Source of the DNA: Clostridia bacterium
GTDB lineage: Bacteria > Bacillota > Clostridia > Oscillospirales > CAG-382
Reading direction: 5' to 3'
Length of the DNA: 32,093 bases
Assembly (NCBI GenBank): GCA_017629895.1
Contig: JAGBWF010000051.1
Location: 1 to 32,093 of the forward strand
This document shows, piece by piece, positions 19,679 through 22,334 of this stretch. Both the position numbers and the translations under genes were made by a program. How positions within the stretch are numbered: position 1 is the stretch's first letter; each line of letters starts with the position of its first letter. Below the pieces are notes generated by a model. That model searched no databases. It had not been told where the DNA came from and worked only from the letters and a program-made list of their open reading frames with translations.

Positions 19679-20485
19679 TTATTGCTTTTTCTCAATTTTT
19701 GCGGTTGCGAGCCGAACCGCAATATATATCGCGATGCAAACGTCTACGGCAGAATATGCCGCCGAGAGATTGAACGGAAGGCTGCCCGAGCAACGAAGCA
19801 CAAGGTTGGGAACCGAATAAACGATTAGGAAGAACACCGAAACGAATCCGAAGCCGGAATAGCTTGCGGCAGAGGTTTCGATGACGTAGGATTTGCCCTC
19901 TGTCAAGAAATAGAGCAGCACCGCAACCAAGGAGATAATATGGTAGGCGCCCGAGGACGCGAGCGGTGCCGAGCTTGTGGAGATGAAATCGGATAAAATT
20001 CTTAAAGCAGAAAAGAAAATCGGAACAAGCGCCGCGGTTGCGTAGAAGCTTTCGCTTTTTCGCGGCTTGTTGAATTGCAGGCCCGATACGAGAAAGACAA
20101 CGGCGCTGAGCAGGGTAAGCACGAAGACCGCAAACTCGGCGAGCTTGAATTCGGATCCATCGGAGAAAAGCTGTACCGAATAGAAGAGCGATGCACCGAT
20201 AAGCGCAAAGGCAAGCAAGATCGAAGCCGCAGATACGCCGATATGGGAGTGCCCGAGATTTACAAGCTTCTTTTTGCTCGAGGAATAGCCGAGATAGAGA
20301 AAGAGAATAAGAAAGAGCGCGGAAACGACGGTGAAAGCGGTTATTTCGGGCTTGTCGGGGAGATAATAGGTATCGACAGCGAATGAGTTCTTTTCTATAT
20401 ATGCAGAGATAAGGAAGATGCGGAGAGCAGCCATAATAAGCGAAATAACGGCGACAACCCCGATCCTTGTTTTTTGCGAGTGCAT
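19679..20485 (-). CDS. Hypothetical polytopic membrane protein
   Basis: Start moved to ATG 20485 (SD GAAAGGGG); about 8 hydrophobic segments; minus-strand promoter TTTACA-17-TATAAT at 20553-20525. Confidence 0.8.
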   Translation of the reverse strand: MHSQKTRIGVVAVISLIMAALRIFLISAYIEKNSFAVDTYYLPDKPEITAFTVVSALFLILFLYLGYSSSKKKLVNLGHSHIGVSAASILLAFALIGASLFYSVQLFSDGSEFKLAEFAVFVLTLLSAVVFLVSGLQFNKPRKSESFYATAALVPIFFSALRILSDFISTSSAPLASSGAYHIISLVAVLLYFLTEGKSYVIETSAASYSGFGFVSVFFLIVYSVPNLVLRCSGSLPFNLSAAYSAVDVCIAIYIAVRLATAKIEKKQ

Positions 20486-20657
20486 AAAAAGCCCCTTTCG
20501 GATAGAATCACAGATGACTATGATATTATAGAGCAACAAACGGCTTTTGTAAAGAGAAATTGCATATTTTTTGAGTCAAACGGCATAGAATGGAGAAGCG
20601 CAACGCGAAAAATATTAAATTTAAGGGAATATACAGTAAATTTTTCCGAAAAAAGAC

Positions 20658-20686
20658 TTGACATTCCGAAAAAACGGTGATACAAT
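20658..20686 (+). promoter_or_regulatory. sigmaA promoter for tRNA-Gln
   Basis: TTGACA, 17 nt, TACAAT with a TG extension. Confidence 0.8.
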
Positions 20687-20720
20687 AAATCTCGCGCCGA
20701 GAAAGCGCGGAATTGAATAT

Positions 20721-20795
20721 AGCGGGATTGTGTAACGGTTAGCACGACAGACTCTGACTCTGTTTGTTGGGGTTCGAATCCCTATCCCGCTGCCA
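20721..20795 (+). tRNA. tRNA-Gln (anticodon CTG)
   Basis: Acceptor AGCGGGA/TCCCGCT + G + CCA; D arm GTGT/GCAC; anticodon arm ACAGA-CTCTGAC-TCTGT; T arm TGGGG-TTCGAAT-CCCTA. Confidence 0.96.
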
Positions 20796-20836
20796 AACAA
20801 AAACAGATGGGCGAAAGCCCGTCTGTTTTTGTTTTG
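20796..20836 (+). terminator. Intrinsic terminator of tRNA-Gln
   Basis: AACAAAAACAGATGGGC-GAAA-GCCCGTCTGTTTTTGTT. Confidence 0.85.
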
Positions 20837-20850
20837 TTGTGTAAAAACAG

Positions 20851-20951
20851 GGGATTCGAACGGGTCGGTAGTGAATGACGTGCCGGGGGCACGTCAGAGC
20901 CGACCCTGACCGAGCCCGCAGGCGAGAACGAATCCCTATCCCGCTGCCAAA
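20851..20951. repeat. tRNA-linked structured element ending in a duplicate of the tRNA 3' end
   Basis: CGAATCCCTATCCCGCTGCCAAA occurs at 20775-20797 and 20929-20951; the internal nested stems are GGGATTCG/CGAATCCC, GGGTCGG/CCGACCC and TGACGTGCC/GGCACGTCA. Confidence 0.85.
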
Positions 20952-20987
20952 AAAAATTCCTCGGACTTGTTCCGAGGATTTTTTTAC

Positions 20988-21073
20988 CTCTTCACTCTTC
21001 ACTCTTCACTTTTCACTTTTCTCTCAACGAGGAATTTTTTTGGCAAGTAATAGGTAATAGTGAATAGTGAAGA
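20988..21073. repeat. Two inverted tracts of heptamer repeats
   Basis: (CTYTTCA)x4 plus CTTTTCT at 20988-21022; AGTAATA GGTAATA GTGAATA GTGAAGA at 21046-21073. Confidence 0.75.
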
Positions 21074-21082
21074 AGTAAGGTA

Positions 21083-21116
21083 GCTTTTCGCTATGGCGAA
21101 AAGCAATTTTTGTTTT
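21083..21116 (+). terminator. Terminator-like hairpin
   Basis: GCTTTTCGC-TATG-GCGAAAAGC followed by AATTTTTGTTTT. Confidence 0.6.
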
Positions 21117-21218
21117 AAGGTTAGAAGTAATGGCTTTTACGCACTTGACAATATACAACGGTTTAGCCGTTTTAACCCCAACACCGATTTTCACATATAC
21201 TGAATACGGTGATGCAAT

Positions 21219-22334
21219 ATGTATAATAAGGAAACGCAATGTATAATCGGCGATTGCGGCGGAGGCTACGAGTCCTCGATCGCGCCGCCGATTTTTCAGA
21301 CCTCGACCTTTGTCGGCGGCGGTGAATATTCCTATACACGCCTTTCAAACCCGACGCGCACTATGCTTGAGCGAGAGATTGCTCTTTTGGAGGGCGGAAG
21401 ACACGCTTTTGTATTTTCGTCGGGGCTCGCCGCGATAAACAGCGTTTTTTCGCTTCTGAAAAACGGCGACAGGGTGCTTATTTCCGATGACCTCTACGGC
21501 GGCACCTACCGTATGGCGCAAACGTATGGGGGATACGGGATCGAATTCGAATTTATCGACGTAGGCGATTCACAAAACGTGGAAAACGCATTGAAAAACG
21601 GTGCGAAAATGGTTTTTGCCGAATCGCCGACCAACCCGATGATGAAGGTTGCCGATCTTGCGGAAATTGCGGCTTTGTGCAAGAGCCACGGTGCGATTTT
21701 CGTTGTCGATAACACCTTTCTTACACCCTGCTTTCAAAATCCGCTGTCGCTCGGGGCGGATATAGTCGTACATTCGGCGACGAAATACCTTTCGGGACAC
21801 CACGATACGCTTGCGGGGGCGGTTGTTGTAAACGACGAAGCACTCGCCGAGCGCATTTCTTATATCTCGATGACGCTCGGCAACGCGCTTTCACCCTTCG
21901 ACAGCTGGCTCGTGCTCCGAGGGCTGAGGACGCTTTCTCTGCGTATGGAAAAGCACCAGAAAAACGCCTTTGCGCTCTGCGAGGTGCTGAAAAACAGCGA
22001 TAAGATCGAAAGCGTGATATACCCCGGACTTCCCGAGCACAAGGGGCATTCGGTGATGAAAGGGCAGGCGAGCGGATACGGCGGCGTCGTTACGTTTACG
22101 CTCCGCGACGTTAAAGACGCGGGCAGGCTTTTGAAGGGCGGGGAAATAATTAAATTCGCAGAAAGCTTAGGCGGGTTTATGAGTCTTATCACCTATCCGC
22201 TGACGCAGACACACGCATCCATACCCAAGGAAATGCGCGAGCGTATAGGGATAAACGACAGACTTTTCCGCCTTTCGCTCGGACTGGAAAACGAGAAAGA
22301 TATTGCAGAGGATATGCTTAAACTGCTTTCTTGA
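21219..22334 (+). CDS. Cystathionine gamma-synthase / beta-lyase (Cys/Met metabolism PLP enzyme)
   Basis: PPIFQTSTF, YTRLSNPTR, FSSGLAA, DDLYGGT, ESPTNP, VDNTF, HSATKYLSGHHD, AESLGG, RLSLGLE. Confidence 0.92.
   Translation: MYNKETQCIIGDCGGGYESSIAPPIFQTSTFVGGGEYSYTRLSNPTRTMLEREIALLEGGRHAFVFSSGLAAINSVFSLLKNGDRVLISDDLYGGTYRMAQTYGGYGIEFEFIDVGDSQNVENALKNGAKMVFAESPTNPMMKVADLAEIAALCKSHGAIFVVDNTFLTPCFQNPLSLGADIVVHSATKYLSGHHDTLAGAVVVNDEALAERISYISMTLGNALSPFDSWLVLRGLRTLSLRMEKHQKNAFALCEVLKNSDKIESVIYPGLPEHKGHSVMKGQASGYGGVVTFTLRDVKDAGRLLKGGEIIKFAESLGGFMSLITYPLTQTHASIPKEMRERIGINDRLFRLSLGLENEKDIAEDMLKLLS

Follow-up and report, generated by a model that had tools for sequence, protein, structure and literature searches.

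The window analyzed here is a stretch of 32,093 nucleotides from a Clostridia bacterium of the order Oscillospirales (contig JAGBWF010000051.1 of assembly GCA_017629895.1, positions 1 to 32,093). Its sole tRNA gene (ARAGORN, Rfam) is tRNA-Gln(CTG), closed by an encoded CCA, and directly behind this gene lies the subject of this report, a compact module in which the end of the tRNA gene recurs twice, once directly and once inverted, around a conserved core. The module belongs to a cassette family that colonizes the 3' flank of tRNA and transfer-messenger RNA (tmRNA) genes in uncultured gut Clostridia (Oscillospiraceae and relatives). Its parts in the window are the following.

20721-20795, plus strand: tRNA-Gln(CTG), complete, the partner gene of the module (ARAGORN; Rfam tRNA, 60 bits)
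20775-20797, plus strand: direct repeat copy 1, tRNA-Gln from T-loop C56 through the CCA plus 2 nt
about 20795-20844, plus strand: terminator-like hairpin 1 with a T run, between tRNA-Gln and the left arm
20851-20861, plus strand: left arm (L'), reverse complement of tRNA-Gln G53-C63 (20772-20782)
20851-20858 and 20929-20936, plus strand: stem P1, in which the left arm pairs with the right arm
20859-20927, plus strand: conserved core cassette of 69 nt (AAC...GCGAGA; BLAST and covariance-model matches)
20862-20868 and 20900-20906, plus strand: stem P2, GGGTCGG/CCGACCC, enclosing P3
20876-20884 and 20888-20896, plus strand: stem P3, TGACGTGCC-GGG-GGCACGTCA, exact, with loop GGG
20911-20926, plus strand: P4, CGAG-CC-[CGCA]-GG-CGAG, a short hairpin closed by tandem G.A/A.G next to C:G
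20929-20951, plus strand: right arm (R), which is direct repeat copy 2, the tRNA-Gln gene from C56 through the CCA plus 2 nt
about 20958-20985, plus strand: terminator-like hairpin 2 with a T run, already part of the next repeat element

The two copies of the tRNA end are identical over 23 nt at a spacing of 154 and, when extended to 20775-20802 and 20929-20956, match at 27 of 28 positions. The left arm, GGGATTCGAAC, is an exact 11-nt reverse complement of 20772-20782, and P2 and P3 are joined by an asymmetric internal loop (TAGTGAA / GAG). An initial annotation, made from the sequence alone, had described the repeated tRNA end with a terminator-like hairpin after each copy, the inverted T arm and the two nested stems, and all of these were confirmed, arm and stems to the letter. 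Hairpin 1 reads as a terminator on the minus strand too, and 8 terminator-like sites were found in the 800 nt scanned compared with 1.0 expected. Folded as single-stranded DNA, the 104-nt module reached -25.1 kcal/mol versus -16.8 +/- 2.7 for shuffled sequences (0 of 200 shuffles were as good), in the shape that the annotation had proposed.

No third copy of the tRNA-Gln end was found in the window (two matches, both the known copies), and no recombinase was detected among the 11 open reading frames (ORFs) scanned between 16409 and 31324. These ORFs are of housekeeping or cell-wall types and include a peptidase M29, a ParA/Mrp-type nucleoside triphosphatase, a pyridoxal phosphate-dependent Cys/Met enzyme, a CHAP/dockerin protein and sporulation proteins. 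The earlier statements that the locus has neither integrase nor cargo and is not an ordinary attachment-site (att) scar therefore hold for the window. The module is more than a chance arrangement, since the same architecture recurs behind other tRNAs.

Distribution and partner genes

The assembly to which the window belongs (G000) is 74% complete and consists of 174 contigs. It contains a second module with the same order of parts, on another contig and directly behind tRNA-Arg(ACG); modules thus stand at 2 of its 20 tRNAs (ARAGORN). The core of this copy is 74-83% identical to that of the window copy, its right arm is the last 21 nt of tRNA-Arg, and its stems P2 and P3 differ by compensatory changes. 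The tRNA-Ser(GGA) gene of G000 (G000:C101:16099-16190) ends exactly at a contig end, and the tRNA-Ser(GGA) of a congener (L007) bears a module whose core is 99% identical to that of the window, suggesting that the G000 assembly may break at a further copy.

An 83-nt core query matched 56 of 164 genomes of the bacterial family, in 8 of 15 genera, with at most 10 matches per genome, commonly in tandem and commonly at contig ends. Within the genus of the window the module is patchy, being present in 26 of 60 genomes. A covariance model built from 25 module copies found the family in 42 of 151 genomes sampled from the order (15 of 30 families). An exact 22-mer of the core occurs at a minimum of 120 loci in a species-representative genome collection, and among the matches listed all titles were those of uncultured Clostridia, Oscillospiraceae, Eubacteriales or Ruminococcus-type metagenome-assembled genomes (MAGs). 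The initial annotation had suggested looking for the core in its own and related genomes; it is not unique to the locus.

The partner genes were determined for 122 distinct modules taken from the loci examined. Half of them (61) lie no more than 75 nt behind a tRNA on the same strand, 2 lie behind a tmRNA callable by ARAGORN and 12 behind another module. In 27 the upstream sequence was too short to place a partner. For the other 20 no partner lies within 75 nt; several carry tmRNA-type right arms, and the tmRNA gene, at about 350 nt, is longer than the upstream sequence analyzed. The order tmRNA then module was confirmed in two longer stretches. The 60 modules directly behind a tRNA are distributed over 17 isoacceptors (Gln; Ser with four anticodons; Arg with three; Leu with three; Glu; Lys with two; Ala with two; Gly). 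The module always has the orientation of its partner gene, from which it is separated by a gap of mostly 48-65 nt. In other families of the order a 67-nt core alone (model positions 20-87) was found inside different hairpin-rich repeats, flanked for example as ..CCTTGAGGGTAGCGAAGCGGAG[core]CAGGTGGCGCGAAGCGCC.. These core-only loci (L161-L176, in G166, G174, G180, G195, G210, G213, G220, G241 and G256), many of them at contig ends, have no tRNA within 200-500 nt on either side.

Arms and core

The right arm comprises the whole gene tail from T-loop position 56 in 42 of the 60 tRNA-linked modules, and in 50 the left arm is complementary to this tail over at least 8 nt (8 nt in 23 modules, 9 in 12, 10 in 8 and 11-15 in 7). 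The left arm tracks 11 different T-loop/T-stem 8-mers, such as CGAATCCC, CAAATCCC, CAAGTCCC, CGATTCCC and CGAGCCCC. The annotation had predicted that, in a tRNA-targeting element, the same core would stand behind different tRNAs with both arms matching each one, and the 60 modules at 17 isoacceptors bear this out. The most direct comparison comes from three groups of modules whose 69-nt cores are 100% identical and whose arms are different and partner-matched. The first contains the tRNA-Gln copy of the window (CGAATCCC in both arms) and the tmRNA-linked copies of two congeners (CGATTCCC in both arms), the second a Ser(GGA) copy (CGAATCCC) and a Ser(GCT) copy (CAAATCCC), and the third the loci L042 and L105. 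Another 21 pairs of modules with no more than 2 core differences also have different matched arms, and in copies of this kind conservation does not extend to the spacer and terminator that precede the left arm. Judged from these sequences, the arms appear to be re-derived from each target gene, and the most economical interpretation would have the core alone moving and the target supplying both arms.

Where the T loop is nonpalindromic, TTCAAAT, the left arm reads ATTTGAA, indicating that it is a true inverted copy and not a degenerate 5' half of the T arm. Two other readings were rejected: a T arm split by insertion, because TTCAAAT-type loops would then give TTCAAA and not ATTTGAA, and a cut at a TTCGAA restriction-type site, because other T-loop sequences behave alike. 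The left arm fits the tRNA better than a decayed right arm does in 8 of the 60 modules. Among the 113 modules with at least 110 nt of upstream sequence, a copy of the right arm (2 or fewer mismatches in 16) lies within 130 nt upstream in 77, and only an 8-mer matching the left arm lies within that distance in 19.

Nine of the 60 partner tRNA genes have no encoded CCA. The right arm lacks the CCA in all nine, and in six of them it runs on for 1-34 nt into the gene's own trailer. Since genes without CCA give copies without CCA but with trailer, the right arm is copied from the DNA of the gene and not from mature tRNA. The direct repeats of the 42 modules with a full tail span 19-75 nt. Their start is constant, at position 56 (+/- 2 nt), and their end varies between the CCA and points past the terminator.

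The core was examined for covariation using 109 distinct sequences aligned to the model. Standard pairs occupied 90.8% of the pair cells compared with 76.9% in column shuffles, a value reached by none of 500 shuffles, and sliding the partners lowered the paired cells to 35-46%. Changes on both sides were observed in 28 of 33 pairs. In P2, 96.6% of the cells were paired, with double changes in 5 of 7 pairs, and in P3 98.2%, with double changes in 9 of 9. P3 keeps TGAC...GTCA and CC-GGK-GG while its middle three pairs vary freely, and relatives have longer, different hairpins as P4 between kept CGAG...CGAG flanks. Structured RNA normally shows a clear excess of G.U on its own strand. The 1686 cells of P2 and P3 comprised 1629 Watson-Crick pairs, 15 G.T, 11 A.C and 31 others. 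G.T is as rare as A.C, the form that a wobble of the other strand takes here, and since this is no strand-specific wobble excess, a hairpin at the DNA level fits. Such strand-unbiased, near-perfect Watson-Crick stems fit either a DNA hairpin or very young copies.

A search of Rfam 15 (cmscan of 20300-21400, E<=10) returned only the tRNA above the gathering threshold and nothing credible on 20848-20951, RtT RNA included; ten core-only loci gave no Rfam match at E<=0.01. A hammerhead-like reading of CUGACCGAG...CGAGAA was dropped, because both conserved boxes have an extra base and no Rfam ribozyme matched.

In integron attC sites and the CTX-phage attP(+) site, imperfect hairpins of about 60-140 nt with strictly Watson-Crick stems are the active form. 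The cassette resembles these sites in its strict Watson-Crick stems, in part of which the structure outlasts the sequence. On the other hand, no RYYYAAC/GTTRRRY sites were seen by eye (no model search was run), the arm ends ..TTCGAAC / CGAAT.. appear by eye to depart from that consensus, there is no integron integrase context, and the arms copy the host gene and not recombinase-binding boxes.

Interpretation and alternatives

We tentatively favor, at somewhat less than an even chance, the reading that the module is a non-autonomous hairpin cassette which acts as DNA, targets the 3' ends of tRNA and tmRNA genes and has target-derived arms. The initial annotation, in the first of its alternatives, had proposed a tRNA-targeting element that is non-autonomous and whose ends are templated by the host tRNA gene, and the identical cores with target-matched arms speak for it. 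The mobile part would presumably be the core of about 69 nt with its three hairpins (P2, P3 and P4), and the arms would be taken from the target gene and not be fixed parts of the element. The right arm would arise as a direct DNA copy from T-loop position 56 through the gene end, often into the trailer or terminator, and the left arm as an inverted copy of 8 to about 21 nt of the same stretch, P1 closing around the core. The cassette may act as a hairpin in single-stranded or extruded DNA and may insert by a replicative or repair-type step in which the target is duplicated once directly and once inverted, the enzyme being presumably supplied in trans to a non-autonomous element. The sequences themselves show the anatomy, the association with many different genes, the target-matched arms, the DNA origin of the right arm, and a patchy, multi-copy distribution with tandem, decayed and interrupted copies; mobility, a single-stranded DNA form and this manner of arm templating are what we infer.

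A more specific proposal, which we regard as doubtful, is that the mobile unit is only the 69-nt core and that insertion builds its own inverted and direct arms from position 56 by a target-templated mechanism of the hairpin or fold-back kind, or else that base pairing of the left arm chooses the target, with no element-encoded enzyme. Such target-templated transposition has not been described for bacteria.

The state of the copies agrees with a selfish repeat. Modules stand in tandem in L020 (period about 151, identical terminators), and truncated copies were found in L034 and as the second copy of L028. Three modules (L019:1642-1788, L027:1626-1773 and L029:1492-1639) are broken by a hairpin insert of about 40 nt in P3 or P4. 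The cores are heterogeneous within one genome, ranging from 108 to 53 bits in G012 and being 74-83% identical in G000. Ten tRNA-Gln loci of congeners without a clean module comprised two plain empty sites (L179 and L185), one core-deleted remnant and seven loci with other tRNA-end repeats. In L178 (G040:C13), behind tRNA-Gln, the left arm GGGATTCGA is joined straight to the right-arm end of a different tRNA-Gln variant (..TCGGCAGCCA), which looks like a core deletion across a short repeat. The patchiness and the tandem, truncated and interrupted copies are signs of a selfish repeat rather than of a maintained gene. The 40-nt insert itself (GGGGTCCCCG..AAAAC...GTTTT..GGGG) also stands alone near the end of L007, as a further nested miniature element.

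Among small mobile elements, the repetitive extragenic palindromic (REP) sequences, the bacterial interspersed mosaic elements (BIMEs) and REP doublets forming hairpins (REPINs), which are served by REP-associated tyrosine transposases (RAYTs, of the Y1 HUH type), and the miniature inverted-repeat transposable elements (MITEs) are short, multi-copy, intergenic, imperfectly palindromic and non-autonomous, and often lie just behind genes. Like REPs and REPINs, the cassettes are multi-copy intergenic imperfect palindromes with conserved unpaired bases. However, a Y1 transposase was found in only one of five carrier genomes, and no related autonomous element was found. The cassette is also the reverse of a MITE, in that its conserved part is internal and its terminal arms are site-specific copies of the target. 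These arms vary with the target gene, and the duplication, starting at position 56, has a length of 19-75 nt and not a short fixed one. Insertions of the IS1397 type in REP loops and class C group II introns behind terminator stems carry their own enzyme or ribozyme. The cassette is like them in being tied to hairpin or terminator DNA and in that small hairpin elements nest, but they make no inverted and direct target copies. No description of such a cassette was found in full-text searches, whose coverage left out subscription journals. The cassette represents a variant, not described so far, within the tRNA-linked repeats and small insertion elements.

Several observations weigh against a target-templated DNA cassette. 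No clean filled/empty pair between near-identical genomes was found among the ten congener tRNA-Gln loci or at the tRNA-Ser(GGA) locus of a sister genus, where it is ambiguous which terminator is native. Core exchange by gene conversion among old, site-adapted modules could also give identical cores with different arms. Neither a right-arm copy nor a left-arm 8-mer lies within 130 nt upstream in 17 of the 113 modules. In L154 the arms match each other and not the adjoining tRNA-Leu, and in L136 a Ser-type right arm stands behind tRNA-Gln; these two loci fit element-borne arms better than target-derived ones.

The survey of enzymes, in which none was identified for the cassette, also counts on that side. 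Four families were profiled in five carrier genomes (PF01797, PF01548, PF00078 and PF00589), of which three are 98-99% complete (G012, G255 and G235). The Y1/HUH transposase (PF01797) was present in one of the five and absent from G012, G255, G235 and G000, and the HUH partner considered in the annotation is disfavored. The IS110-type DEDD recombinase (PF01548) was found in none of the five, which sets the cassette apart from bridge-RNA elements of this type. A reverse transcriptase occurred in one of five. This, together with right arms that follow genomic DNA (without CCA at all nine CCA-less loci, and following the trailer), disfavors the likeness to a primer-binding site noted in the annotation and distinguishes the cassette from a tRNA-primed retroelement. 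Tyrosine recombinases (Phage_integrase) were present in all five carriers and in all 14 control genomes; being present in all carriers, the family is uninformative as a candidate, and the modules of G012 have none nearby. In G235, a cluster of core copies (L177) flanks only a MerR-type regulator and a hydrolase-like ORF (by eye), and it has no transposase.

The last points against the DNA cassette concern RNA. The constant co-orientation of the module and its position between two terminators would also be explained by an RNA role. In addition, contigs from three RNA-library runs and one DNA run were inspected, from which ends, strand and level are not readable. In two RNA runs of one study, short contigs covered 20860-20936 and left the unique flanks bare; the third RNA run gave no contig over the module, and no joints were seen in the contigs of the four runs. 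These contigs may stem from other copies or from library DNA and are a weak hint only.

A role as RNA would mean a structured non-coding RNA produced by read-through from the tRNA or tmRNA promoter, similar to RtT, in which the copied 3' end serves 3' processing, stability or CCA handling, or in which the left arm regulates maturation of the upstream tRNA through its T arm. We consider this unlikely. The module is co-oriented with its partner at a fairly constant short gap, its multi-helix structure is conserved with strong covariation, the CGAG...CGAG flanks of P4 give tandem G.A pairs only on the plus strand, and the contigs of the two libraries would agree with it. The predicted read-through RNA is also very stable (-128.8 kcal/mol, z -9.1) in a fold with two pairings, of the left arm with the T arm and of the 5' acceptor strand with copy 2. 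The alternative RNA folds described in the annotation, with the left arm invading the T arm, are thus predictable in silico, but covariation supports nothing beyond P1-P4 and there is no RNA-type wobble. This lack of wobble excess in P2 and P3 (15 G.T versus 11 A.C among 1686 cells) speaks against an RNA. Moreover, a strong terminator-like hairpin precedes the module, with no consistent promoter from the terminator to the left arm, the copies are patchy, with empty sites and truncated or interrupted modules, Rfam gave no match at E<=10, and the RNA contigs come from one study and have the other possible sources given above, the third run being blank. In E. coli, RtT RNA (RF00391) comes from the distal 178-bp repeats at tyrT; each unit follows a tRNA gene and closes with a copy of the tRNA 3' end, and the function is poorly understood. 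The cassette likewise is a repeat unit behind a tRNA gene ending in such a copy. It differs in having no RtT match (E<=10), in the occurrence of its core at many genes and in its inverted arm, whereas RtT is bound to one enterobacterial tRNA operon.

A direct repeat from the T loop to the 3' end is typical of T-loop-type integrase sites, and the modules could be remnants of T-loop-targeting islands. In that case attL and attR would delimit the module, tyrosine integrases of resident islands or phages would move or stack it in trans, and the core would be a conserved attP arm region. The modules would then be minimal cis-mobilizable elements (CIMEs), which PMC5704250 defines as elements that have lost the genes for integration and transfer and kept attL and attR. 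We judge this origin to be quite unlikely, although the likeness is considerable: the direct repeat from T loop to 3' end (23 nt exact in the window, the full tail in 42 of 60 modules), the use of tmRNA, the stacking in L020, the gene-less interior and the tyrosine recombinases in five of five carriers. The same gene ends also attract other insertions, namely hairpin arrays and a prophage at a tmRNA end in G098 (see below). However, CIMEs have one or few targets per lineage, whereas the cassette has one 69-nt core at 17 or more genes, with the same or nearly the same cores at tRNA-Gln, tRNA-Ser(GGA), tRNA-Ser(GCT) and tmRNA; 17 isoacceptors and tmRNA are far past the specificity of one integrase lineage. 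No integrase or remnant adjoins the modules of the window or of G012, and the core had no match in IMG/VR (exact 22-mer) or in GenBank phages and plasmids (blastn). An att scar also leaves unexplained the target-matched inverted arm and the core nested in hairpin repeats unrelated to tRNA, and a double-stranded circle of 150 bp is a poor recombination substrate.

Finally, the modules could be ancient and maintained at each site because, as DNA, they serve the host (for example as insulator, bidirectional terminator, or protected spare attachment site sparing the tRNA gene), the cores being homogenized by gene conversion; we regard this as improbable. In its favor, the arms match the local gene also in modules with a decayed right arm (the 8 cases of 60), variable DNA begins directly behind copy 2 at several loci and ahead of the module at others, and core-to-core conversion would yield identical cores with different arms. 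Against it, cores are heterogeneous within one genome, the genus has the module patchily, in 26 of 60 genomes, decay and interruption of copies are tolerated, and there is no evidence of a phenotype.

Significance and neighboring repeats

Islands and phages classically land at the ends of tRNA and tmRNA genes, and a short copy of a tRNA end is routinely taken for an integrase scar. The copy described here belongs to a compact and widespread family of cassettes, not yet catalogued, in which the arms follow the gene. Should the arms be templated during insertion, this would be a novel mode of DNA insertion and of target choice, and a compact natural case of sequence-programmed insertion beside essential genes that is harmless to them. 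If the module acts as RNA instead, it would represent a new class of tRNA-linked structured RNA of abundant gut bacteria. The cassettes also have practical consequences: the repeats break MAG assemblies at tRNA genes, with many copies at contig ends, and they can mislead island-finding tools that rely on tRNA fragments.

The module of the window is followed immediately by another element:

20952-21110, no strand assigned: second, unrelated repeat family, a long palindrome rich in TTCAC/GTGAA, starting right after the CCA of copy 2

The tRNA-end repeat of the window stops at 23 nt because this second repeat begins there. Its boundaries are marked by an inverted repeat (TGCCAAAAAAA... / ...TTTTTTTGGCA) that takes in the final 5 nt of the tRNA, and it gave only sub-threshold, Phe_leader-like matches in Rfam. 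The same family was found right after tRNA-Tyr (G000:C132:2370-2508), beside tRNA-Val (G000:C60:3735-3848) and in many congeners.

A prophage-like region next to two modules was observed in G098 (loci L157, G098:C160:14000-30000, and L189, G098:C191). It contains a LexA-type repressor, a DUF3799 nuclease, a cytosine methylase and an intein-containing helicase. At its end lies a large serine recombinase, the 3' end of which borders directly on a copy of the tmRNA terminus; the gene for the tmRNA is on another contig. Since the junction lies at the tmRNA-end copy, upstream of the terminator and the modules, the phage landed in front of pre-existing modules.

Hairpin arrays of small GC hairpins, 250-350 nt long, lie directly after tRNA-Gln or tRNA-Ser in the loci L008, L012, L025, L029 and L180-L184 of relatives. 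They start right behind a terminator that follows the tRNA and repeat a spacer word that is GTGAAAT, GTGATAT or GTGAAGTT depending on the locus, and a T-loop-like GAGTTCGAAT closes some of them. Beyond the arrays there are often small genes, including ORFs that by eye resemble a four-helix bundle or a helix-turn-helix protein.

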